From an uncultured Alphaproteobacteria bacterium (lineage in GTDB: Bacteria; Pseudomonadota; Alphaproteobacteria; RF32; CAG-239), in assembly GCA_934248075.1 (NCBI GenBank), contig CAKQKH010000003.1:46710-110709 (forward strand): a stretch of 64,000 nucleotides of DNA, written 5' to 3'. Shown here in pieces: positions 7,978 through 50,794 of this stretch. A program made the translations under genes and the position numbers. Positions within the stretch are counted from its first letter, which is position 1. Every line of letters starts with the position of its first letter. The notes beneath the pieces were generated by a model that was not told the origin of the DNA, made no database searches, and saw nothing but the letters and a program-made list of their open reading frames with translations.

Positions 7978-9798
7978 ATGATGAATATGAGAAATATTGC
8001 CATAATAGCTCACGTTGACCACGGCAAAACCACATTGGTTGACGGATTGTTAAAGCAGAGCGGCACTTTTAGAGACAACCAGAAGGTTGATACTTGCGTT
8101 ATGGATAGCAATGACTTGGAGAGGGAGAGAGGAATTACGATTCTTTCCAAGTGTACGTCGGTTAATTGGCACGGAACCCACATTAACATTGTTGATACTC
8201 CGGGGCACGCTGATTTTGGCGGCGAAGTGGAACGTATATTGTCTATGGTTGACGGCGTGGTTTTGTTAGTCGATTCATCTGAAGGCCCGATGCCGCAAAC
8301 CAAATTTGTATTGGGCAAAGCCCTCAAACTCGGTTTATGCCCAATTGTCGTTATCAACAAAGCTGACAAGGCTGATGCACGCTGCGATGAGGTTTTGAAT
8401 GAAGTTTTTGATTTGTTTGTAAGTCTTGATGCCAACGACAAGCAGCTGGATTTTCCGGTGCTATATGCTTCTGGCCGCAATGGTTGGGCAGTTAAAGAGC
8501 TGGAAGACGAGAAAAAAGATTTGAGTCCGTTGTTTGAACTGATTCTCTCTTACGTTCCGGAACCAGCTTGCGAACCAAACAAACCTTTTTCCATGCTGGC
8601 AACCACATTGGAAGCCGATAAGTTCATCGGCCGTTTGATAACCGGCAAAATCCAGTCCGGCACTTTGCATGTTAATGACACTGTCAAAGTGCTAGATGGC
8701 ACCAATAAAGAAATTGAACGTGTCCGCATCAGTAAGATTTTGGCATATCGCGGCCTCAATCGCGAATCATTGGAAGAGGCTCATGCCGGAGACATTATTG
8801 CGGTAGCCGGCGTTGTTAAAGGCACTGTGGCTGACACTCTTTGCGCGTTTGAAGTTTCTGAGGCCATTCATGCTCAGCCGATTGACCCTCCGACTTTGGC
8901 CATGACTTTTTCGATTAACGATTCGCCGTTGGCCGGTCGTGAAGGCGACAAAGTAACCTCGCGCATGATTTGGGATCGTCTCTGCAAAGAAGCCGAGGGT
9001 AACATTGCGCTCAAAATTTCCCGCACCGACACCACCGATTCGTTTGAGGTTGCCGGACGTGGAGAATTACAGTTAGGCGTCTTGATTGAAACCATGCGCC
9101 GCGAAGGATTTGAGCTTTCTATCTCTCGTCCGCGCGTGCTGATGAAAAAAGATGAAAACGGCAAACTTCTTGAACCGATTGAAGAAGTTGTGGTTGACGT
9201 TGATGAAGAATTTTCTGGTGCCGTAGTTGAAAAACTCGGCCAGCGCCGCGCCGAAATGATAGATATGATTCCGTCTCAAGTCGGCAACAAAGTTCGCTTG
9301 ATTTTCAATGCGCCATCACGCGGACTGATTGGTTATCACTCTGAATTTTTGACAGACACCCGCGGCACTGGTGTCATGAACCGCCTGTTCAAGTGTTATG
9401 AACCCTACAAAGGTGAAATTGACAGCCGCCGCAATGGTGTTTTGATTTCATCAGAAACCGGCACTGCCATTGCTTATTCATTGTGGAAATTGCAAGATCG
9501 CGGCCCAATGTTTATTGATCCGGGTGTTCCGGTATATACCGGCATGATTATCGGCGAACATACCAAGCCCAATGATATTGAAGTTAACCCTTGCAAAGCC
9601 AAACAGCTTACCAACATCCGTGCCGCCGGCAAAGATGAAGCCATTGACTTGGTTCCGCCACGTAAAATGAGTCTGGAACAAGGCTTGTCTTATATTCAAG
9701 AAGACGAATTATTAGAGGTTACCCCCAAAACTTTGCGCCTGCGCAAACGGATTCTTGATCCGATCGCTCGCAAACGCCAAAAGCCTGGTGATTTCTAA
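7978..9798 (+). CDS. typA: Translational GTPase TypA/BipA
   Basis: MMNMRNIAIIAHVDHGKTTLVDGLL...DTPGHADFGGEVER...NKADK. I place the start at ATG 7978. The track start at 7945 is a TTG inside the repeat element. Confidence 0.93.
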   Translation: MMNMRNIAIIAHVDHGKTTLVDGLLKQSGTFRDNQKVDTCVMDSNDLERERGITILSKCTSVNWHGTHINIVDTPGHADFGGEVERILSMVDGVVLLVDSSEGPMPQTKFVLGKALKLGLCPIVVINKADKADARCDEVLNEVFDLFVSLDANDKQLDFPVLYASGRNGWAVKELEDEKKDLSPLFELILSYVPEPACEPNKPFSMLATTLEADKFIGRLITGKIQSGTLHVNDTVKVLDGTNKEIERVRISKILAYRGLNRESLEEAHAGDIIAVAGVVKGTVADTLCAFEVSEAIHAQPIDPPTLAMTFSINDSPLAGREGDKVTSRMIWDRLCKEAEGNIALKISRTDTTDSFEVAGRGELQLGVLIETMRREGFELSISRPRVLMKKDENGKLLEPIEEVVVDVDEEFSGAVVEKLGQRRAEMIDMIPSQVGNKVRLIFNAPSRGLIGYHSEFLTDTRGTGVMNRLFKCYEPYKGEIDSRRNGVLISSETGTAIAYSLWKLQDRGPMFIDPGVPVYTGMIIGEHTKPNDIEVNPCKAKQLTNIRAAGKDEAIDLVPPRKMSLEQGLSYIQEDELLEVTPKTLRLRKRILDPIARKRQKPGDF

Positions 9799-9805
9799 AA
9801 CCAAC

Positions 9806-9840
9806 AAAGCCCCAAGCACACTGTTTGGGGCTTTAATTTT
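9806..9840 (+). terminator. Rho-independent terminator of typA
   Basis: Stem AAAGCCCCAA / TTGGGGCTTT is followed by AATTTT. Confidence 0.65.
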
Positions 9841-9844
9841 AATA

Positions 9845-9875
9845 ACAAAAAAGCTCCGAAAATATCCGGAGCTTT
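9845..9875 (-). terminator. Rho-independent terminator of the 9909-10280 gene
   Basis: Stem AGCTCCG / CGGAGCT is followed in the minus sense by a T-run (plus-strand A-run 9847-9851). Confidence 0.6.
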
Positions 9876-9908
9876 CAAATTTGCCTATGGAGAAAACGGA
9901 AAAACCGA

Positions 9909-10280
9909 TTAACGACCGCCGGAACTCCTATAACCACCGACCGTTGCAACCGACGGAACTTTTTTCTTAAATGGATTTAGTCGTCCGCACAGAGTTGAGA
10001 TTCTTCCCTTCAAATCTTTAGACAAGCCGCCAACAACTTTGGCAAGAGCCACCGCGGCCTTACCCGAAACTGTCCGAGTATTTCCGCTCGCCAAATGCTT
10101 ATTATAATCAGCATACATTTGTCTGGCAGACTTAATACCCTTATAAGTCTCCGGCATATGTTGCTGAATCATTCTGGAACCTTCGGCCAACTCCAAACCT
10201 TTGTCCGTAATTTTGCTGACAAAGGAATCAAGACCGTGAAACACGCCGCCCAGCCCCCTTGTTTTTTTAACCTCGCTCAT
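9909..10280 (-). CDS. Hypothetical protein (123 aa)
   Basis: The ORF reads MSEVKKTRGLGGVFHGLDSF...GGYRSSGGR. I prefer ATG 10280, which is preceded by GGAG 8 nt upstream, over the track GTG at 10349. No family was recognised. Confidence 0.5.
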   Translation of the reverse strand: MSEVKKTRGLGGVFHGLDSFVSKITDKGLELAEGSRMIQQHMPETYKGIKSARQMYADYNKHLASGNTRTVSGKAAVALAKVVGGLSKDLKGRISTLCGRLNPFKKKVPSVATVGGYRSSGGR

Positions 10281-10470
10281 CGTTTTTCTCCATAAATAAA
10301 TAGCGTCATTTTGTCTATTATCGCAAGTTAATTGTGTTTTGTCAACCACAAAAGAGGTTCAAACCCGCAAAAATATAGGCAAAACTGCACATTTGCTGTT
10401 TTATTATTGCAAATAATAACCTATAATCTCTTAAAATCAACTTAATAAACCGACTAGGCCACAAAATATA

Positions 10471-12051
10471 ATGAGTTTATTCAAATCAATCGCCACTTTT
10501 GGCAGCTTTACTTTACTTTCGCGCATCACCGGATTCTTCCGTGATATGGTATTGGCAAACTTTCTCGGTGCCGGTTTGATATCTGACGCATTTTTCGTTG
10601 CATTCAAGCTGCCCAATTTATTTCGTTCATTATTTGCCGAAGGCGCTTTTACCTCAGCTTTTGTTCCAATGCTTTCACAAAAGCTAGTAACCGATTCCAA
10701 GCAAGACGCGCTTGATTTTGCCGCAAAAGCAATTTCTGTTTTGGCATTTTTTCTTGCGCTGTTTGTTTTGATCATGGAGATTTTTATGCCTCTGGTTGTG
10801 CGCATTTTGGCCCCCGGTTTTATTGCCGACAGCGGCAAAATTGAGCTTGCCGTGCAACTATCGCGCATCACCTTTCCGTTTTTGCTATTTATTTCGATTG
10901 TATCTTTTCAATCAGGGATATTAAATTCTCTAGGCAAATTTGCCGCGCCTGCGGCCGCGCCGGTAATCCTCAATCTGATGATGATTGCTTCCGTGTTTAT
11001 TTTTGTGCCGTTTGGCGCCACTCCGGCTCACGGCATTGCTGTCGGCGTAACTTTTGCCGGATTCGTTGAGATTCTGTGGTTGATGTTTTTTCTTCATCGC
11101 CAACAAGCGTATCTCAAACCAGACTACCACATTTGGCCTTTATTGCAAGACAACAGCATCCGCACACTATTCAAACGCATTGCCCCCGGAGTGCTCGGGG
11201 CCGGAGTTTACCAAATCAACATGGTTGTTGACACCATTTTAGTTTCACTGGTTGGCACCGGAGCAATCTCCTGGCTCTATTATGCCAATCGTTTGCAACA
11301 ATTGCCTCTGGGCGTAGTTGGCGCCGCCATTGGCGTTGCGGTTTTGCCGATTCTCTCTCATCACCTTAAGTGCGGCGACAACGCCGAAGCTTGCAAAGTG
11401 CAGACCAAGGCCATTGAATATGGCGCTCTTTTGTCCATACCAGCCGCCGTTGCTCTGATAGTTTTGGCCGAACCGATAATCAACATTTTATTTCAGCACG
11501 GCAAATTCGGAACCTTGCAAACAACCATGACTGCCCGCGCCGTAATTGCCTATGCCATTGGTTTGCCAGCCTATGTGTTGGTTAAAGCCCTCGCGCCCAA
11601 TTTTTTTGCCCGCGGCGACACCAAAACTCCGGTCAAATACAGTATCATTGTTTTACTCACCAACCTAAGTTTTTCAATTATACTAATGAAACCTTTCGGA
11701 CATGTTGGTATTGCTTCTGCCACCACCATTGCGGCCTTTGTGTCATTATGGCAGTATTTGCGCGGACTAAAAAAACGCGATTTCTGGCATTTTTCCCGCA
11801 ATTTAGCCATTGAGACCGCCAAAATTGCCGCCTGTTCATTAGTTATGGGCGCGGTCATCGGCTGCGGAAAATTTTTGCTTAATTGCCATTATGAAAATTG
11901 GCTTCACCTTTCCATTCTGCCCAAGCTTGGCTGGTTTGGCGCTTTGTGCATATTGGGGCTTGCAACTTTTATAATAACCGCTAAACTCAGTGGTGTGTTG
12001 GATATTAAAGAAATACTAAATATGTTCAGACGGAGATCGGCAAAATGTTAA
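10471..12051 (+). CDS. murJ: Lipid II flippase MurJ (MviN)
   Basis: 526-aa polytopic protein. The N-terminus FGSFTLLSRITGFFRDMVLANFLGAGLISDAFFVAFKLPNLFRSLFAEGAF is typical of MurJ. Confidence 0.9.
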   Translation: MSLFKSIATFGSFTLLSRITGFFRDMVLANFLGAGLISDAFFVAFKLPNLFRSLFAEGAFTSAFVPMLSQKLVTDSKQDALDFAAKAISVLAFFLALFVLIMEIFMPLVVRILAPGFIADSGKIELAVQLSRITFPFLLFISIVSFQSGILNSLGKFAAPAAAPVILNLMMIASVFIFVPFGATPAHGIAVGVTFAGFVEILWLMFFLHRQQAYLKPDYHIWPLLQDNSIRTLFKRIAPGVLGAGVYQINMVVDTILVSLVGTGAISWLYYANRLQQLPLGVVGAAIGVAVLPILSHHLKCGDNAEACKVQTKAIEYGALLSIPAAVALIVLAEPIINILFQHGKFGTLQTTMTARAVIAYAIGLPAYVLVKALAPNFFARGDTKTPVKYSIIVLLTNLSFSIILMKPFGHVGIASATTIAAFVSLWQYLRGLKKRDFWHFSRNLAIETAKIAACSLVMGAVIGCGKFLLNCHYENWLHLSILPKLGWFGALCILGLATFIITAKLSGVLDIKEILNMFRRRSAKC

Positions 12052-18117: not shown

Positions 18118-18235
18118 GAAATTCTCAAGAAAATCTAGTGAATAATACAAATAGCGCAATTCGCCAGACAAAATATTAGACAAAATAGTTTTTCTATGCT
18201 AATATAATGTCATAGACAGATTTTGGAGAACGAGC

Positions 18236-21094
18236 ATGGCAAGATTATTACTTACTTCGACAGACCCGAGTCCTGATGCCACTAAAAAAGCGATTTTAGA
18301 AGAAATTGATGCACTGAAGAAGTTTATAAATTGTCCAGACAACAGCTATACTACTGGGATGAATAGTATAAATGGATCACTCGTGATGCGAGAAACGGCC
18401 AAATACAATTTTTGTGATTTTGCAGATATAAGACACCCAGACCTTGTCGCTGAAGCTCTTAAAGAACAGCGCGATTCTGGACACAATACTTTAATATGTC
18501 CTCTATACGCAATAGCTGAAACAGATGACCCTAGATACACATCTGCATCGCTAAAAGCTTCTCTAAAAGCCATACGAGAACATGACCACCACAATCAATA
18601 TAAAAAGATACTGCTCCCCATTGGCGATGTAGAAGGATCTCATGCTATGGCTTTAGCTATTGAAGGTGATCAGGCCTACATTTTCGAGCAATTTGGCGAT
18701 GACAGATATAAAGATTTTAAAAATAAGCTAACCGAAGTTTTGACCAGCGTCGGTATTAAAGAAGTCCATATCAACCGCAAACCTTTAACCGACGGAAATC
18801 GTTTAGACTGTGCCACAGTCAGCACCGCCATAATTTCTCAAGCCATTAAAGCCAAATCCATTAAAGATCTTTTTGACCAGGTTGAACACAAATCTCCGTT
18901 TTTCACCTCTGAGGAAATTAATGCTCAACATAAATTGGATAAAAACCGTGCCAAAATAGCTCTGAATGATATTAAAAACGGTCACCGCAATGACCGCAAC
19001 AACAGCGCTGATGTTATCTTGTTCCAAAAATTATTGTCAAAGACTGCTCTAAAAACAGGAACATTGCCGCCGCAAGACATAGAAGCTTTCTGGAACGCCA
19101 AAGATAAAAACGATTTTGTTAACAACTACGAGCATATCATGACACAAAACCAACAACTTGAAGACATCTTTAACGCAATGCACACCCCTAAGGAAGTCCA
19201 AGAAAAAATCTTGGCCAGCCTTAACGACTCTGCCGCCAAAGATGCACTAATCAGAGAATGTGAAAATTACAACAATGATTATCACGAGATTTCCGTCAAC
19301 TATCAAAATCTCCATGACTCGATAGATCGATACTATAATCTCAAAGAAAACGACTACGGAACCGGAACTTATACCGTCGTAAGCTCGCTGGTTGCGTGGA
19401 AAATAGCGCAAAAGCATGATGTTTGTTTTGTTGATAGTATTTTTACCAGAACCTCCGGCAAAAACAAAGACACGGAGCTAAAGACCAGAATAGAAGCTTC
19501 CAAAAACAAAGCGAAAAACCCTCAGACCATTGTGCTTGGCCCGATTGAAACCTCTCGCACAGAAAACGGCAAAACAGTTTTTGATCCGAACACCTTATCA
19601 ATCATTTTAAATTCAGCTGAAATCAAGAATTCTGAAACCGCGATTATGCCCTTGACTCTGACAGACGCCACAAACGGCAAGCGGCACATGGTCAGCCTGA
19701 TTTTGCGCCCCAATGCCAAAAGCGGCAAACCCGAGGCTTCTCTAATTGATCAGTGCGGACGTGATGCCTACAAAGAATCCAAAGATCAAATCAAAGATCT
19801 GTTGCAAAAAAGCGGTTACAATCTCACCTATGAGCCGGACAGAATTATGGACAATCGTAATGATTGCGCCATTTTTACCGCCATGATTAATGATGCTGCC
19901 ATCGGCAAATCCGCCGATGAACTAAAAACCTATATTGAGGATGTGCAAAAGAAATCGCAAGACGAAAAAGCGGCTGAAGTTGATAAATATAACGGCCAAT
20001 GCAAACAGATTACGCTGGACGCCTATTGGGAAGTCTGTGCCGCTGATCCGTTGTTCAAACAGTATCTCAAGGCTTCTGGCGTTGACATCAGCACTCTTGA
20101 TAACGCTAAAAAGATGCAATACCTCAAAGAATTCAATAGTGGCGGTGTTCTTACTGTTGAAGACAATCAAAACGATGATGATCGCGTTTCTGATCCGATT
20201 TGGAAACAAGAGATTCGTGAGGCGGTTGAAAAAGCCAATCAAGAACTATCTCAAAAATTTGAAGAATACACAGACTCCGAACACCCTGATCGTCTGTTCT
20301 TCAGAGACCAAAACAATGCCGGCAACATCATTGCTTTTGCCAGCAAAGAACAAGCCTATGTTGAAGGTGAACAAGCTGCTTTTGATCAACTGGTTGTCAC
20401 CGCCAAAAAAATGGGCAAAGACACTATTGCTTTTGGCTCTTTTGAAAAACACCCCGAATATCGCGCCAAACTTTATTTGGCTTGCCTCAAACACGGCCTC
20501 AAAATGACAAACGCTCCCGAGCTGGATAGCCTTCAGCAATATCCAGAATACGCGGCTATTCAAAACATCATTTCCGGAGAGGAAAAGAAAAAATCCGAGG
20601 AAGAAAAACCTAAAAAAATAAAAGAGTTAAGAGAGAAATTTCGCGCAATAGACCAAGAGCTTGATACCGCGCGGCGTGAATTTATGGAAAATGACGAATG
20701 CAAAAAACTCTTGAAAGAATACAGCAAGACCAAGGGCGACCGTAACATGGATAAAGATGAGAAAAAAACCAAATTGGCCGAGCTTCAAGACCAAATAAAA
20801 GAAACAGCCGCTGGCAAAAAATTAGCCGAGTTGGCTGACAAAAAAGCTCAGCTGTTCCAAAAAGGTTTTGCTGATGGTATTATTGACGAAAAACGAGCTA
20901 ATGATGCTGCTAATCGCCGCCGCACTCCCATAGATCTCAAACAAAAAACCGGTGAAACCGATGAAGATTTTGCCGCTCGTAAAGAAAAACTAGAAAAAGC
21001 GCAAAAAAGACTTAAACCCACCGAAGAAATTTTAGCTGCAGATGTACAACGGCGGATTCTTCGTCAGGCCATAACATCTAAAAAAACACGTTAA
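18236..21094 (+). CDS. Large hypothetical protein with two Ulp1/SENP-like (clan CE) cysteine-peptidase modules and a Lys/Glu-rich C-terminal region; candidate secreted effector
   Basis: The 952-aa ORF is clear. Module 1 reads KILLPIGDVEGSHAMALAI..YIFEQFGDD..TDGNRLDCATV, with H136/E151/C192. Module 2 reads AIMPLTLTDATNGKRHMVSLIL..SLIDQCG..MDNRNDCAIFTAMI, with H484/D505/C544. The functional call is motif-based only. Confidence 0.8.
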   Translation: MARLLLTSTDPSPDATKKAILEEIDALKKFINCPDNSYTTGMNSINGSLVMRETAKYNFCDFADIRHPDLVAEALKEQRDSGHNTLICPLYAIAETDDPRYTSASLKASLKAIREHDHHNQYKKILLPIGDVEGSHAMALAIEGDQAYIFEQFGDDRYKDFKNKLTEVLTSVGIKEVHINRKPLTDGNRLDCATVSTAIISQAIKAKSIKDLFDQVEHKSPFFTSEEINAQHKLDKNRAKIALNDIKNGHRNDRNNSADVILFQKLLSKTALKTGTLPPQDIEAFWNAKDKNDFVNNYEHIMTQNQQLEDIFNAMHTPKEVQEKILASLNDSAAKDALIRECENYNNDYHEISVNYQNLHDSIDRYYNLKENDYGTGTYTVVSSLVAWKIAQKHDVCFVDSIFTRTSGKNKDTELKTRIEASKNKAKNPQTIVLGPIETSRTENGKTVFDPNTLSIILNSAEIKNSETAIMPLTLTDATNGKRHMVSLILRPNAKSGKPEASLIDQCGRDAYKESKDQIKDLLQKSGYNLTYEPDRIMDNRNDCAIFTAMINDAAIGKSADELKTYIEDVQKKSQDEKAAEVDKYNGQCKQITLDAYWEVCAADPLFKQYLKASGVDISTLDNAKKMQYLKEFNSGGVLTVEDNQNDDDRVSDPIWKQEIREAVEKANQELSQKFEEYTDSEHPDRLFFRDQNNAGNIIAFASKEQAYVEGEQAAFDQLVVTAKKMGKDTIAFGSFEKHPEYRAKLYLACLKHGLKMTNAPELDSLQQYPEYAAIQNIISGEEKKKSEEEKPKKIKELREKFRAIDQELDTARREFMENDECKKLLKEYSKTKGDRNMDKDEKKTKLAELQDQIKETAAGKKLAELADKKAQLFQKGFADGIIDEKRANDAANRRRTPIDLKQKTGETDEDFAARKEKLEKAQKRLKPTEEILAADVQRRILRQAITSKKTR

Positions 21095-21100
21095 CCCAGC

Positions 21101-21129
21101 AAAGGCAGCTTAACCGCTGCCTTTTTTTA
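21101..21129 (+). terminator. Rho-independent terminator of the 952-aa gene
   Basis: Stem AAAGGCAGC / GCTGCCTTT with loop TTAACC is followed by a T-run. Confidence 0.7.
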
Positions 21130-21134
21130 TTGCC

Positions 21135-21791
21135 TTACAATTCAAAAATTTGTCCGGCCTGCAACACTCCGCCCAGACCGGCTTTTTTGGCTCTTTCCAC
21201 CACTTCTGCATAATCCTGCGGCCGATAATGAGATACAAAAGTCTTGGCCTTGATTTCCGGTTTTGCCGCTGCCAATTCATCAATTTTAACAATCGCTCCG
21301 CCGTTCAAACTCACATCATGAATAATCATCTTGGCTTGCTGCGCTTGCTTGGTATCAAGAACCGATATTGCCGAATCTCCGCTATACAGCACCATATCCG
21401 CCACATACAGCGCCAAACATTCCAACCCTTTGGCATGCGGCACCAAAAATGTTTCTAATTTTACTTCTGACGGCATCACCATCTGAGCCGCATTCACTCC
21501 GTCGGCATTTTGCAAAAGCCTGTCCCACGCGCCGCCAATCGCGGTCTTTTGTCCCAAGATATTATAGCGATATTCCACCAGCGTCACCGCCGAACCGGCA
21601 TGATCCTGATGCTGATGAGAAATCAGCGCCGTTTTAATTTTATTCGCATATCCTCGCCGCAGCAGCTCCTGAAACACACTGTACCCGCAATCAAGCAAAA
21701 CTCCGCTGTTCTCATCTTGCCACAGCACAAAAGAATTATTAATCCCGTCTTTCACAAAAGCCGAGTTAGTACCCAAAACCTCTAGTTTCAT
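21135..21791 (-). CDS. MBL-fold metallo-hydrolase
   Basis: 218 aa. It has the motif ISHQHQDHAGS (HxHxDH). Its start lies 2 nt after the histidine-kinase stop. Confidence 0.8.
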   Translation of the reverse strand: MKLEVLGTNSAFVKDGINNSFVLWQDENSGVLLDCGYSVFQELLRRGYANKIKTALISHQHQDHAGSAVTLVEYRYNILGQKTAIGGAWDRLLQNADGVNAAQMVMPSEVKLETFLVPHAKGLECLALYVADMVLYSGDSAISVLDTKQAQQAKMIIHDVSLNGGAIVKIDELAAAKPEIKAKTFVSHYRPQDYAEVVERAKKAGLGGVLQAGQIFEL

Positions 21792-39679: not shown

Positions 39680-40243
39680 ATGAAACACACCGCGCAAATC
39701 ATTATATGTCTGCTTATCGGACTTTCATACTCAGGGTTGGCTCAATCTTCCAGCCTCGATGATTTGTACCGCGATGTCATTCGTTCCGACAATGACGGCT
39801 ATTTGCCGCTGTTTGTTAAAAATCGCTCTATGCCGAATGTATTGATTGAAGAAGAAATCCTCAAAAAAGCGACTGAACAGCCGCAGGCAGAAATCAAAAA
39901 AAGCGGCAACCCCGTCAACCTGATTAATAACGCTCAGGCCAAAGAGGCCGCCAAACGTGCCAAACAACTCAAATGGGAGCAAACTCTACAAGCTGTAAAA
40001 GAAAATCGCGTTACCCCGCTCGATCTTGATGAAATAACCTATCGCGTCAGTTTGGGCGATGCCAAAGCAATTGAGATTTTGGCCTGGATGTACACCAAAG
40101 GCGTTGGCGTCAGCCCTGACTTTGTAGCCGCATTCAGATTATATCAACAAGCAGATAAATTAAATGTTCAGGGCGCCAAAGAAAACGCCGCCAAAGTCTA
40201 TAAAGCTATGACCGCCGAACAAAAATCTCAAATTAAGAAATAG
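39680..40243 (+). CDS. Secreted Sel1-like-repeat protein
   Basis: 187 aa. It has the signal peptide MKHTAQIIICLLIGLSYSGLAQS and one clear SLR-type unit, GDAKAIEILAWMYTKGVGVSPDFVAAFRLYQQA. Confidence 0.6.
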   Translation: MKHTAQIIICLLIGLSYSGLAQSSSLDDLYRDVIRSDNDGYLPLFVKNRSMPNVLIEEEILKKATEQPQAEIKKSGNPVNLINNAQAKEAAKRAKQLKWEQTLQAVKENRVTPLDLDEITYRVSLGDAKAIEILAWMYTKGVGVSPDFVAAFRLYQQADKLNVQGAKENAAKVYKAMTAEQKSQIKK

Positions 40244-47662: not shown

Positions 47663-48521
47663 TCTTGCCGTTACCCTCATTATCATCAAGACTGTCGGAG
47701 TAATCCTGAGCGGATCGCTGTCCGTATTTTCTTCCATGATTGACAGCATGGCTGACTTGTTTGCCTCCTCTATCACGTTTATTGCCGTCCGCATATCTTC
47801 TCAGCCTGCGGATCTTCGGCATCGCTATGGACATGGCAAAGCCGAAGCTCTGAGCGCGTTGGTTCAAGCGGCTTTCATTACCGGATCCGGATGTTTTATT
47901 TTATACGATGGCATCTATCGTTTGTTTGTTCCGCAACCCTTGCCCAAAGCCGATTTCGGGCTTTTGGTCATGGTTATCAGCCTGATTTTAACCATAATTT
48001 TAATCTCATTTCAGAAATATGTAGCCGTCCGCACGGCTTCCAAAGCTATCAACGCCGATGCCGCTCATTACAGCGTTGACGTCATAACCAATTTATCAAT
48101 CATCATCACCTTGTTGGTTGTAAAATTTTTCGGTTTAGAGTGGTTTGACACTATTACTGCCATTGCCATATCATCTTATCTTTTGTACAGCTCCTACAAA
48201 TTAGCCTATGATGCCGTTGCTTTGCTCATGGACAAAGAGCTTGACGATTCTATCCGCGACAACATCGCCAAAATCGCCCTATCCTGTGATCATATCTGCG
48301 GCTTACACGATATGCGCACTCATGACCTTGGTAGTCATTATATGATAGAATTACATCTGGAACTTGACGGCAATTTAAGCCTTAGCGCCGCTCACCAATA
48401 TACAGACAATGTCGAAACCGAATTACAAAAGGCTTACCCGGGAGCTCAGATTATTATCCATCAAGACCCTTCCGGCCTTTTTGAAAATCGTTTAGATGAC
48501 AATCTGACCCAACCGCGCTAA
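47595..48521 (+). CDS. Cation diffusion facilitator (CDF) family metal efflux transporter
   Basis: 308 aa containing SLAVTLIIIKTVGVILSGSLSVFSSMIDSMADLFAS...HRYGHGKAEAL...AAHYSVDVITN. It overlaps the upstream gene by 68 nt. Confidence 0.85.
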   Translation: MQSSLSEQQGNRLKKQATIASISLAVTLIIIKTVGVILSGSLSVFSSMIDSMADLFASSITFIAVRISSQPADLRHRYGHGKAEALSALVQAAFITGSGCFILYDGIYRLFVPQPLPKADFGLLVMVISLILTIILISFQKYVAVRTASKAINADAAHYSVDVITNLSIIITLLVVKFFGLEWFDTITAIAISSYLLYSSYKLAYDAVALLMDKELDDSIRDNIAKIALSCDHICGLHDMRTHDLGSHYMIELHLELDGNLSLSAAHQYTDNVETELQKAYPGAQIIIHQDPSGLFENRLDDNLTQPR

Positions 48522-50794
48522 CGCTTTTTACCTTTGTTTATTCGTTTGGTTCGCGCCCTGCGTGATCCCCGATTCGAATGTCCAGACTTTTTGCGTTTTC
48601 CGGCGGTTTTAACTTGTTTCAGCAATGATGCCTCTTTTCCGCCTGCCAACTTTTCCGCAGAATCGTTTTCGGTGTTCTGAGCATTTTGTGTCCGCGCGAT
48701 ACTTCCCTCATTGAGACTTTTGCTAACCGGAGTGTTTTTTGCTGCAGCCCCTTCATTTAGTTGGCGCGATTGGGGCGCGGGATTTTGTCGTACCGCTACC
48801 GGACGCACACCGCCGCTATCACTGTTTTCGCTGACATTCATGCTGTTATCCTCAGACTCGTTATCAGGCGAATTGTCTGCATCACTCCCCAAGCCACTGC
48901 TCAATGGTTGTCCGCCGGACGCCTTAGCGCCATCAGCTTCCTCGCCGCCTCCGCCGGCAAAAGCACCGCGAATTTTTCCCCACAGTTTTTTAGGAGCGCC
49001 TTTAAGGTGTCGCCCTATTGCTTCACGAGTAGATTGTGTAGTTTTCAGTGCAAAACTCTTAGCCGCAGAAGCTCCAATCGTCGCAATACTTGGAGCAATC
49101 GGTTTGAGCGCGCCAGATGCAAAAGCTCCAGCCATCTCTTTAGTTTGTCCTATAAACTTAAAGCCAAAAATACAGCAAAACAGCAAAATCAAAAAGCCCA
49201 CGCCGGAAATATCGGTCAAATTAACCAACTCTTTCTCATTTTGAGTGTTAATCGCTTTTGCAATAGCATACAAACTACCCATTTTAACTTCACAATGTTC
49301 GGCATCTTGACAAGTTTCTTCATTAACCGTGTCGGTCTGCTCGTTTACCGTAAAGTTAACCGCCGCGCTCACCAAATTCAAATCAACCGTAATCACCATG
49401 CCGGCAAACATAAATATAAACGCGCTGTTTAAAATCATATTCCACCCGACTTTAGAATATTTGGAGGTTATCTTAAACGGCCAAGAGGCAATCAAAAAGG
49501 GCATCAAAGCTCCGGCCAACCCCAGTTGCACCACCGCGTCCAAAAGATAAAATGCAAAAGCTATTGCCATCAAAAATGCAAACGCCGCTAACAATATACC
49601 TTGAATCATCATCATAAAGCCGGCGCCAAAAGTTATGATTGACCCCGGAGTAATCATTCCGTGGCCTCCAATACAAATCAGTGATGAACCAATCCCCTGC
49701 ATAAAAGATATGTTACGCTGAACATTAACCACAAAATTATCAAGATTCAGATACAAATCTCCGTCAAAATACGTTGTGTTGGTCAGCATTGCCCGCCGCT
49801 TGGTAATACCTGGATTCTGTTCCTCCATTTTTTGATCATCAGTCAAATTATCACTAGTTTTAATTACCGAATACCGCTCATCTAGCATTGCGTTGCCAAA
49901 AGCCAATCCGGCTTTTAGCACCGGCGTAATTCCAAGCTCAAATATCTGAGTTGAATATTGCAACAACAAAAAGGCAATCAAAACCTTGTAGCTTTGTTTA
50001 ATCAGATTGGTCAAAAATTTTGGAGCGTCTTGTTTGGTCAGAGAACTAACTTGTGTCAGTGTTTGTACTGCCACCCAGAGAGCCAAACCTAACATCAAAA
50101 TCGTTGCAAAAGCCGTCGCCAAATTTTTAAAAGATATTGCGGTAATTTCTCCCGATACTTTATACATTGTTGAAAACAGCGGACAGAAAAAGCATTTGCG
50201 GGCATTATACAACTTAACCGGCAAAACTTCACACCCGCGAATAGAGGCGCTATTCTTCCCCTCATTGGCGTATTTAAGAGTTATTTTGTCTCCAATATCT
50301 ACAGAATATTTATTTCCATCTGAACCATCAAAAACCTTCTTATAGCGAACTGGAATCCCAAACACAGTTTTCTTAAAATCACAACCAGTAAAACATTGTG
50401 TCGCGTTATTGGAAGGAGGCTCTTCTCCTTTAAGAAGACAACTGTACTCATATGTATCGCAGACACCCAAAGACTTACCTGTCTCAGGATCAATTTTGTC
50501 AGTGCGACAATATTGCCAACAAATATTTGTTTCTAGATCGCAAGGATAACTTCCACATTGAATATAAGTGGTCTTTTGCTCTTCATTATTATCAATACTA
50601 AGTTCTTTATCGTGTTGTTTTTTTAAGGTGTTTAATATATTAGTCGCTTTTATATTGGCGACATCAGTGGCATAATCATAGGCATCTCGTGCTATTAATT
50701 CATCTTTTAATGTTTCCGAAAATGCGCAAACAGGCATCGCTAATAATATTAGCGAAAAGCCAAGCAATCTGAGAATGTTCTTGCCCATAGCCAT
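48518..50794 (-). CDS. Large polytopic membrane protein, TrbL/VirB6-like (type IV secretion inner-membrane component candidate)
   Basis: 758 aa. It has a signal peptide, a Cys-rich N-terminal domain and at least 6 TM helices. The segment LGLAGALMPFLIASWPFKITSKYSKVGWNMIL resembles the TrbL/VirB6 core. The Gly/Ser/Ala/Asn-rich tail ends in KRKKSGHSNRGSRRARTKRINKGKKR. The family call is motif-level only. Confidence 0.5.
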   Translation of the reverse strand: MAMGKNILRLLGFSLILLAMPVCAFSETLKDELIARDAYDYATDVANIKATNILNTLKKQHDKELSIDNNEEQKTTYIQCGSYPCDLETNICWQYCRTDKIDPETGKSLGVCDTYEYSCLLKGEEPPSNNATQCFTGCDFKKTVFGIPVRYKKVFDGSDGNKYSVDIGDKITLKYANEGKNSASIRGCEVLPVKLYNARKCFFCPLFSTMYKVSGEITAISFKNLATAFATILMLGLALWVAVQTLTQVSSLTKQDAPKFLTNLIKQSYKVLIAFLLLQYSTQIFELGITPVLKAGLAFGNAMLDERYSVIKTSDNLTDDQKMEEQNPGITKRRAMLTNTTYFDGDLYLNLDNFVVNVQRNISFMQGIGSSLICIGGHGMITPGSIITFGAGFMMMIQGILLAAFAFLMAIAFAFYLLDAVVQLGLAGALMPFLIASWPFKITSKYSKVGWNMILNSAFIFMFAGMVITVDLNLVSAAVNFTVNEQTDTVNEETCQDAEHCEVKMGSLYAIAKAINTQNEKELVNLTDISGVGFLILLFCCIFGFKFIGQTKEMAGAFASGALKPIAPSIATIGASAAKSFALKTTQSTREAIGRHLKGAPKKLWGKIRGAFAGGGGEEADGAKASGGQPLSSGLGSDADNSPDNESEDNSMNVSENSDSGGVRPVAVRQNPAPQSRQLNEGAAAKNTPVSKSLNEGSIARTQNAQNTENDSAEKLAGGKEASLLKQVKTAGKRKKSGHSNRGSRRARTKRINKGKKR

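Follow-up and report, generated by a model that had tools for sequence, protein, structure and literature searches.

A predicted tandem clan-CE cysteine enzyme on a conserved scaffold, encoded behind gloB in uncultured gut Alphaproteobacteria

Clan-CE cysteine enzymes are a main means by which bacteria tamper with eukaryotic ubiquitin-like signalling, and to our knowledge almost all of those characterised belong to pathogens or to bacteria with an obligate intracellular life. The gene analysed here encodes a 952-aa protein and lies in a 64,000-nucleotide stretch of DNA from an uncultured Alphaproteobacteria bacterium (GTDB lineage RF32; CAG-239; assembly GCA_934248075.1, contig CAKQKH010000003.1), which is referred to below as the window. 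A preliminary description made from the letters alone had proposed that this protein carries two Ulp1/SENP-like (clan CE) cysteine-peptidase modules in tandem and that it is an effector of the deubiquitinase or deSUMOylase type directed at eukaryotes. We examined the fold of the two modules, their family and chromosomal context, and the substrate and destination that their sequences suggest.

Several features of characterised CE enzymes are relevant to this comparison. An aromatic residue right after the catalytic His is conserved in nearly all classes of deubiquitinase (DUB) and in the Gly-Gly-cleaving ubiquitin-like (Ubl) proteases, where it serves as a gatekeeper that selects Gly at P2 (Hermanns et al., PMC7391069; the rule is also given in PMC4961225). 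The exception in the CE-clan alignment is RavZ, which lacks the aromatic and cleaves a substrate with a bulky side chain at P2 (PMC7391069). Conserved Trp residues are missing in the acetyltransferase YopJ clade, and the known bacterial CE DUBs are effectors (PMC4961225). Within the clan, DUB and acetyltransferase activity cannot be separated by motif content or by the triad alone, and the tested acetyltransferase lpg1949 does have an aromatic after His (PMC7391069).

Residues 1-300 (module 1) were modelled with AlphaFold2 (AF2) from a 12-row alignment, and the model had a predicted local distance difference test score (pLDDT) of 89.6 and a predicted template-modelling (TM) score (pTM) of 0.90. 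The AF2 model of residues 335-952, which includes module 2, had a pLDDT of 72.9 overall and of 72-92 in the module-2 core. When module 1 was compared with the PDB by Foldseek, the best 50 matches were all clan CE, with OtDUB (1.1e-4) and Ulp1 (1.3e-4) as the best and SENP5, SENP1/2, NEDP1, poxvirus I7L, SseL, PopP2, AvrA and Lem17 among the others. The top PDB match of module 2 was RavZ (2.3e-4), and SseL (2.8e-4) matched with a TM-score of 0.62 on the target and a root-mean-square deviation of 4.2 A over 173 columns; Ulp2, OtDUB, CidB, NEDP1, AvrA, HopZ1a and RickCE were further matches. CE matches filled the top 50 of the residues 335-952 model in both the PDB and BFVD, and the viral-model matches of the module 2 model were giant-virus Ulp1-like proteases and S273R of African swine fever virus (ASFV). 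In the module 1 model H136 opens strand 137-143, E151 stands at the end of strand 146-150 and C192 starts helix 192-205, and H484, D505 and C544 are placed in the same way in the module 2 model. These modelled positions of His, acid and Cys fit the CE/papain pattern, and both modules have the fold and the His, Asp/Glu, Cys order that characterise clan CE. The Ulp1/SENP-like fold that had been proposed for both modules is borne out in the models by homogeneously CE match lists and intact triads, and we consider it very probable that both modules adopt the CE fold with functional triads.

Similarity to CE enzymes had been expected from structure and from profiles alike; the structure search found it but the sequence-profile searches did not, and the following points weigh against the assignment. 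Neither the whole protein nor three pieces of it had a Pfam match at E<=10, Peptidase_C48 included, and the PDB gave no match by phmmer or by the family and module profiles. The NCBIfam scan (E<=0.01) likewise returned nothing, with no CE-clan or YopJ-type family; PADLOC gave no match and PHROGs only noise at E ~0.03. When 30 family modules were aligned with Ulp1+SENP1 by hhalign, the E-value was 0.039 and the probability only 1.3%, the Ulp1+SENP1 profile consisting of two sequences (verified against the PDB) and being too shallow for a decisive hhalign result. The register of this alignment set P128, E151, N188 and D191-C192 over P, D531, N577 and D579-C580 of Ulp1. The Foldseek E-values are modest (~1e-4), the TM-scores are low (0.3-0.63), and the triad arrangement is read from the secondary structure of predicted models. 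Ulp1 has an oxyanion-hole Gln, Q574, in the motif QxxNxxDC, a few residues before the catalytic Cys. This canonical Gln is not kept here, where the position 6-7 before Cys is T/D/N/E/S/K across modules, and the family signature in its place is an Asn at Cys-4 together with a Gln right after the acidic residue.

The two modules are related to each other. BLASTP of residues 1-330 against 331-640 gave E=4e-5 with 22% identity over ~210 positions (25-217 against ~361-568) and paired KILLPIGD..SHAMALAIEG..IFEQFG..GNRLDCATVS with TAIMPLTL..RHMVSLILR..LIDQCG..DNRNDCAIFT. Both segments that had been described as repeating one pattern are where they were reported, and the repeat exceeds chance. Distant family members match both modules separately by tblastn (P0020, 1.8e-20 and 4e-8; P0023, 4.6e-12 and 3.8e-30), so the duplication reflects true homology and not a chance pattern. 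The proposed triads, H136/E151/C192 and H484/D505/C544, were verified by their coordinates, and His, acid and Cys are kept in the family modules. Across 30 diverse family modules the H136, D191 and C192 columns were invariant (30/30), and the residue before Q152 was always D or E. The Gln directly after this acidic residue (Q152 column) was present in 29/30, the Asn at Cys-4 (N188 column) in 27/30, and the G41, Y38 and D64 columns were kept in 29-30/30. This pattern of invariance argues for both modules being active enzymes and not pseudo-enzymes. Modules 1 and 2 have 18% identity and differ in their C-terminal helical extensions, which suggests that they are members of different subfamilies, and they probably act on different substrates.

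The active site points away from the DUB or deSUMOylase specificity of the preliminary description. No aromatic gatekeeper (F/Y/W) follows the His in any of the 30 modules, the residue there being A, M, N, T, S, E or V, so a defining feature of the ubiquitin (Ub)/Ubl subgroup is missing and the proposed specificity is weakened. Because there is no gatekeeper, a Gly-Gly tail such as that of ubiquitin or SUMO is an improbable substrate, and we find it somewhat more likely than not that the modules are not classical Gly-Gly Ub/Ubl proteases. By analogy, they would probably act on a substrate with a bulkier P2 residue, as in RavZ-like deconjugation, or on acyl-CoA, as in YopJ-like transfer. The effector proposal itself would have two Ub/Ubl-specific CE modules delivered into eukaryotes by a type IV secretion system (T4SS) through the basic C-terminal tail. 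Although the best structural matches include the bona fide OtDUB, Ulp1, SENP5 and SseL, the triads are intact, the C-terminus is basic and the bacterial CE DUBs described so far are effectors (PMC4961225), the proposal conflicts with the gatekeeper rule in all 30 modules (PMC7391069) and with the lack of a Peptidase_C48 signal in Pfam. It also finds no T4SS gene in the window, where the 'VirB6/TrbL' gene is without a model match, and the hosts are gut Alphaproteobacteria with ordinary cell-wall and housekeeping genes that are not known to be intracellular. We regard it as quite unlikely.

Alternatively, one or both modules could move an acetyl or acyl group from CoA onto Ser, Thr or Lys of a target, as in the YopJ family. 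YopJ, AvrA and HopZ1a have a His/Glu/Cys triad, as module 1 does, and the Foldseek matches include PopP2, AvrA, HopZ1a and Lem17 (1.5e-3 to 2e-2), but for both modules protease structures outscore the acetyltransferases. In both models the Cys helix is followed by additional helices, which might make up a regulatory domain, yet no CE-clan or YopJ-type family was matched in Pfam (E<=10) or NCBIfam (E<=0.01). The YopJ clade is the CE branch without the conserved Trp residues (PMC4961225), and in CE enzymes the triad by itself does not reveal the activity (PMC7391069). However, lpg1949 is an acetyltransferase that has an aromatic after His (PMC7391069), so the missing aromatic lends no support to acyl transfer, and we consider a YopJ-like activity rather unlikely.

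A word-indexed search returned 15 relatives, none of them named or with a Pfam domain, and when 1.84 billion cluster representatives were searched exhaustively by HMMER with a profile of both modules combined, only 31 proteins, all from uncultured Alphaproteobacteria, reached E<=1e-3. A Pfam scan of 10 of these 31 family representatives found no domain, and the sole source name among the relatives was 'hypothetical protein [Alphaproteobacteria bacterium]'. Among the GTDB species representatives the family is present in 15 metagenome-assembled genomes (MAGs), all of uncultured Alphaproteobacteria, from samples of Hadza and infant human gut, roe-deer rectum and caecum, rabbit and similar sources. 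In all 15, and in the metagenomic contigs fetched, the family gene lies directly after gloB (L002-L023), in the syntenic block BipA-MurJ-DUF2333-NifU-glucosaminidase-DUF2336-HD_5-GloB.

The proteins encoded at this post-gloB site have different N-terminal parts. A 'type A' module joined to the C-terminal part is encoded in L005-8, L012, L016 and L017, and a 'type B' module joined to it in L002-4 and P0004/5. Orthologues of 335-470 aa without any CE module (L009-11 and L013-15; about 9570-10980 in each) have a short or unrelated N-terminus that leads into the C-terminal domain with its helical tail and basic end. Two modules are found in 3 of 46 family proteins, namely the window protein and its allelic variants P0001 and P0002, and the tandem arrangement is rare, as had been supposed. 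Because the CE modules vary in number (0, 1 or 2) at one site, the C-terminal domain, the helical tail and the C-terminus form the invariant core, and because the CE-less orthologues keep this scaffold, it has a function of its own. The C-terminal domain (~645-780) is the best-conserved part of the family, with the motifs WKxEVRxAV...FxEYxDxEHP...FGxFExHPEYxAKLYLACLKxGxxMxNAP, and is predicted to have an alpha/beta fold (pLDDT 80-90). No relative of this domain was found in Pfam, PDB sequences, plasmids or phages, and a PDB-profile match to HPF (E=0.51) was judged to be chance. One or two copies of the motif G/N-E-T/S-x2-3-D-F/Y-x2-R lie 46-78 residues from the C-terminal end in the distant family members P0023, P0029-P0032 and P0041, and in the window protein the motif reads GETDEDFAAR. 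In P0020 (732 aa, MBR2923072.1, from another alphaproteobacterial MAG), an N-terminal HEFGH zincin-like region with weak Reprolysin matches (E ~0.03) is followed by a scaffold-like segment and then by a CE module at the C-terminus.

Module 1 varies between strains of one species. The conspecific contig L020 has ~99% DNA identity to the window over 22.8 kb except from 18240 to ~18780, where identity to L020 10005-10545 is 33-77% per 30 nt. The edges of this cassette are sharp, one right after the ATG and the other just before the NRxDC motif; the helical subdomain of module 1 and the strands with His and Glu lie within it. The three conspecific alleles (window, P0001, P0002) have ~45% protein identity over residues 2-181, the same divergence as that of orthologues from other species (38-50%), and are 87-93% identical over residues 182-300. 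The substrate-recognition regions of CE enzymes were defined as VR-1 to VR-3 by Pruneda et al. (PMC4961225), and by analogy the cassette would be the part of the CE fold that holds them. We infer that the allelic turnover of this recognition half reflects a molecular conflict with a target or an inhibitor. In another conspecific contig, L021, the flanks are 98-99.8% identical to the window and ~899 nt (window ~18234-19132) are missing (L021 4772-4900). The start codon of the L021 gene corresponds to M302 of the window protein (19139-19141) and has the same spacer and GGAG upstream; in the window, a copy of the 8-nt direct repeat ACGAGCAT marks either edge of the stretch that L021 lacks. The species is polymorphic for the presence of module 1, and only some of its strains have the tandem form.

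These observations also bear on a role inside the cell, in which the C-terminal domain and basic tail would anchor the protein to the membrane, nucleoid or ribosome and the CE modules would process the cell's own proteins or the protein itself, as self-processing peptidases do in polyvalent proteins. The strictly kept position of the gene among housekeeping genes across 15 species, the separate function of the scaffold indicated by the CE-less orthologues and the lack of secretion genes nearby in the window fit such a role, and the build of P0020 (HEFGH zincin-like region, scaffold-like domain and CE module) resembles that of a multi-domain polyprotein. The hypervariability and the presence or absence of module 1 are, however, atypical of housekeeping enzymes, no similarity to polyvalent proteins of plasmids or phages was found, and stand-alone modules without the scaffold carry the same basic C-terminal motif. 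We consider an internal role improbable.

The tail had been described as Lys/Glu-rich with a positively charged end, and its composition agrees: the last 190 aa contain 17% K and 13% E, and the last 10 aa have a net charge of +4. All 56 family proteins have a net charge between +1 and +4 over their last 10 residues. An amphipathic pattern with a basic end is common to the last 15-20 residues (..QRIAREIMGIKRSR, ..RRILRQAITSKKTR, ..ERLVIQEVLNRRNSR, ..QVVKQLARNGRSPF), of the form hydrophobic-x-R/Q-x-hydrophobic, which is also present on stand-alone 300-aa modules without the C-terminal domain. Because this end is kept family-wide, including on the stand-alone modules, it is the strongest, if indirect, sign of a C-terminal export or targeting signal. 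A C-terminus that is positively charged and either unstructured or amphipathic is a feature of T4SS substrates, but a permissive one and not proof. Since the basic C-terminus is real and shared by the whole family, export of the enzyme is plausible. No hydrophobic signal-peptide-like stretch was seen by eye at the N-terminus (MARLLLTSTDPSPD...).

The link to a T4SS that had been drawn from a TrbL/VirB6-like gene at 48518-50794 (-) was not upheld: no model matched its product (no Pfam match at E<=1, no NCBIfam match), and the TrbL/VirB6 assignment is unsupported. An exact-sequence look-up of the product found no record. It is an orphan membrane protein of 757 aa that has a signal peptide, is rich in Cys in its N-terminal region, spans the membrane several times and has a long, low-complexity, very basic tail ending KRKKSGHSNRGSRRARTKRINKGKKR. 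The other scanned open reading frames (ORFs) of the window are housekeeping genes, such as those for BipA, MurJ, NifU, GloB, a PhoR-like kinase, MutS, ribosomal proteins, PNPase, H+-PPase, a MurC-like ligase, RpoA and Adk, and the sole match to envelope machinery was a prepilin peptidase.

The picture of a foreign, A+T-rich effector gene is not supported either, as the gene occupies the same syntenic chromosomal site in 15 species and its composition lies within ~1.4 standard deviations (SD) of its neighbours. The G+C content (GC) of the gene is 0.413, against 0.442 +/- 0.027 across 46 window genes, and that at third codon positions (GC3) is 0.397 against 0.458 +/- 0.045. The A+T-richness noticed by eye is therefore a mild shift that computation reproduced, but at only ~1.1-1.4 SD the gene is not an outlier. 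A tblastn search of 72,556 plasmids and 50,697 phage records found no relatives, and an origin in a mobile element was rejected on this result together with the strictly syntenic chromosomal position. An interbacterial toxin paired with an immunity gene was considered and down-weighted. There is no immunity-like or small co-oriented ORF downstream, where the neighbour is a convergent gene of the metallo-beta-lactamase (MBL) fold, and an interbacterial toxin is unlikely because an immunity-like gene is missing.

We favour the explanation that the protein is an exported two-headed CE-clan hydrolase or transferase with a non-Gly-Gly substrate, and we give it an even chance. A fixed scaffold, made up of the alpha/beta C-terminal domain, the helical K/E-rich tail and the basic amphipathic C-terminus, would carry two distinct CE modules as N-terminal cargo. 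Each Cys-His-acid triad would form a thioester (acyl-enzyme) and would then hydrolyse it or transfer the acyl group on a protein substrate, and P2 of the target would not be restricted to Gly. The basic amphipathic C-terminus, possibly with the conserved domain, would direct export or localisation. Because this C-terminus would act as an export or targeting signal, the enzyme would work outside its producer, on a host, protist or competitor target; that it is exported and acts on a non-self target is possible, with chances slightly short of even. Some of the findings count against this explanation. The scan of the 64-kb window (~40 of 46 ORFs >=150 aa) revealed no gene of a secretion system, and a gene that keeps its place at a housekeeping locus throughout 15 species could just as well have an internal function. 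The loss of the gatekeeper lowers the likelihood of ubiquitin-like substrates without excluding them, and the hypervariable cassette could stem from recombination with other species rather than from selection.

A broader version of the favoured explanation, which we put forward only tentatively and hold to be on the doubtful side, concerns the locus as a whole. The post-gloB site would be a cassette-swapping effector locus, in which a fixed delivery scaffold carries 0, 1 or 2 interchangeable enzymes of a new CE family whose substrate specificity is unlike that of characterised CE enzymes, and in which the module 1 alleles are kept divergent by an arms race. The altered signature (no gatekeeper; D/E-Q, NRxDC) would then go with a reaction such as Atg8-type deconjugation or an acyl transfer of a new kind, and the arms race would be with a host, protist or competitor target.

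The coordinates of the gene and its features are collected in Table 1.

Table 1. Features of the tandem CE gene and its surroundings, in window coordinates
Feature	Position	Strand	Basis or remark
ORF, 952 aa, ATG start	18236..21094	+	CE module 1, linker, CE module 2, conserved C-terminal domain, helical K/E-rich tail, basic C-terminus
Sigma-70-like promoter candidate TAGACA-17-TAATAT with TG extension	18177..18205	+	consensus scan only, in the 118-nt gloB-to-gene spacer; number of promoter-like sites in the scan not above shuffles
Ribosome-binding site GGAG, 7 nt 5' of ATG	18225..18228	+	sequence read
8-nt direct repeat ACGAGCAT, left copy	18230..18237	+	edge of the strain-variable module-1 segment
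CE module 1 ('type A'), residues 1-301	18236..19138	+	AF2 model; Foldseek PDB matches; modelled as N-terminal helices, beta-sheet with H136 and E151-Q152, Cys192 helix, helical extension with GHRxDRNN motif
Hypervariable allelic cassette, codons 2 to ~181	18240..18780	+	DNA comparison with conspecific contig
H136 codon, predicted catalytic His of module 1, next residue Ala	18641..18643	+	coordinate check, module alignment
E151-Q152 codons, predicted acidic triad residue and family-conserved Gln	18686..18691	+	coordinate check, module alignment
N188-R-L-D191-C192 codons, NRxDC motif, predicted catalytic Cys at N-terminus of helix 192-205	18797..18811	+	model, alignment
8-nt direct repeat ACGAGCAT, right copy	19128..19135	+	other edge of the strain-variable module-1 segment
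CE module 2 ('type B'), residues 335-640, with H484, D505-Q506, C544	19238..20155	+	AF2 model; Foldseek matches
H484 codon, next residue Met	19685..19687	+	coordinate check, alignment
D505-Q506 codons	19748..19753	+	coordinate check, alignment
C544 codon	19865..19867	+	coordinate check, alignment
Conserved C-terminal domain, residues ~645-780	20168..20575	+	family alignment, predicted alpha/beta fold
K/E-rich helical tail	20576..21031	+	model, composition
GETDEDFAAR motif within helical tail	20951-20980	+	common to distant family members
Last 20 residues LAADVQRRILRQAITSKKTR, amphipathic helix and basic end	21032..21091	+	family-wide pattern including stand-alone 300-aa modules
Intrinsic-terminator-like hairpin (21101-21124; 9-bp stem, 5 GC pairs) and T-run	21101..21134	+	between convergent genes

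The terminator that had been described 3' of the gene is present as a hairpin with a T-run, and no paralogues of the gene were found elsewhere in the window by tblastn. The convergent neighbour (21135-21791, -) encodes a 218-aa MBL-fold protein that scores 26.7 bits against the anti-Pycsar Apyc1 family, below the cut-off of 50; this gene follows the family gene in this species group only, and SpoU is there in other species. Further along the window, 39680-40243 (+) encodes a 187-aa protein with one sub-threshold Sel1-repeat match (23.5 bits, cut-off 30.7).

The analysis describes a CE family without sequence relatives, carried by uncultured Alphaproteobacteria of the human, deer and rabbit gut, with an altered active-site signature that predicts a non-Gly-Gly substrate. 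It is likely to be a conflict gene, as its recognition half differs between strains as much as between genera and the module as a whole comes and goes between short repeats. If the protein is exported, it would point to manipulation of a host or of protists by commensal Alphaproteobacteria, and the conserved C-terminal domain with its tail would be a candidate for a new kind of delivery module. Should its action be internal, this would be a rare case of a bacterium directing the CE fold at itself. A limited, non-exhaustive literature search found no description of the tandem CE-CE protein, the family, the signature, the scaffold domain or the cassette polymorphism. On that search, the fold and chemistry belong to a known kind, and the family, signature, tandem arrangement, scaffold domain and intra-species polymorphism are apparently new.

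Among the described systems, the eukaryotic-type proteases Ulp1, SENP and NEDP1 (MEROPS C48, Pfam Peptidase_C48) share with the modules the fold, the P-I-x(n)-H pattern, the [DE] at a strand end and the N-x-x-D-C at a helix start, whereas the modules lack a Peptidase_C48 match, the Trp clamp (HW) and the conserved oxyanion Gln. The bacterial CE effector proteases SseL, OtDUB, RickCE, ChlaDUB1/2 and the DUB domain of CidB (from Salmonella, Orientia, Rickettsia, Chlamydia and Wolbachia) are alike in the fold and in the His-acid-Cys order. Their residue spacing (15-21, ~40) is the same as that of the modules, and they too are bacterial proteins without a signal peptide. The modules differ from them in having no detectable sequence similarity to them, no aromatic after His, a Gln after the acid and no conserved Gln six residues before Cys. 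Further differences are that two modules stand in one chain, joined to a conserved C-terminal domain, and that the hosts are uncultured gut Alphaproteobacteria and not known intracellular pathogens.

The YopJ family (YopJ, AvrA, PopP2, HopZ1a, LegCE and Lem17; MEROPS C55) resembles the modules in the CE fold and in the missing conserved Trp residues, but its structural scores are below those of the proteases and the modules have no Pfam match. YopJ effectors are substrates of the type III secretion system with N-terminal signals. RavZ, the Legionella cysteine protease that deconjugates Atg8/LC3, is like module 2 in being its top PDB match and in lacking the gatekeeper, but the TM-score is low (0.29 on target) and the two have no sequence similarity. 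For the tandem arrangement the nearest parallel is Legionella LotA, an effector with two OTU-type DUB domains of differing specificities. LotA is a precedent for two cysteine-protease modules of one superfamily in one secreted protein, but its domains are of the OTU type (clan CA), whereas the modules described here are of clan CE.

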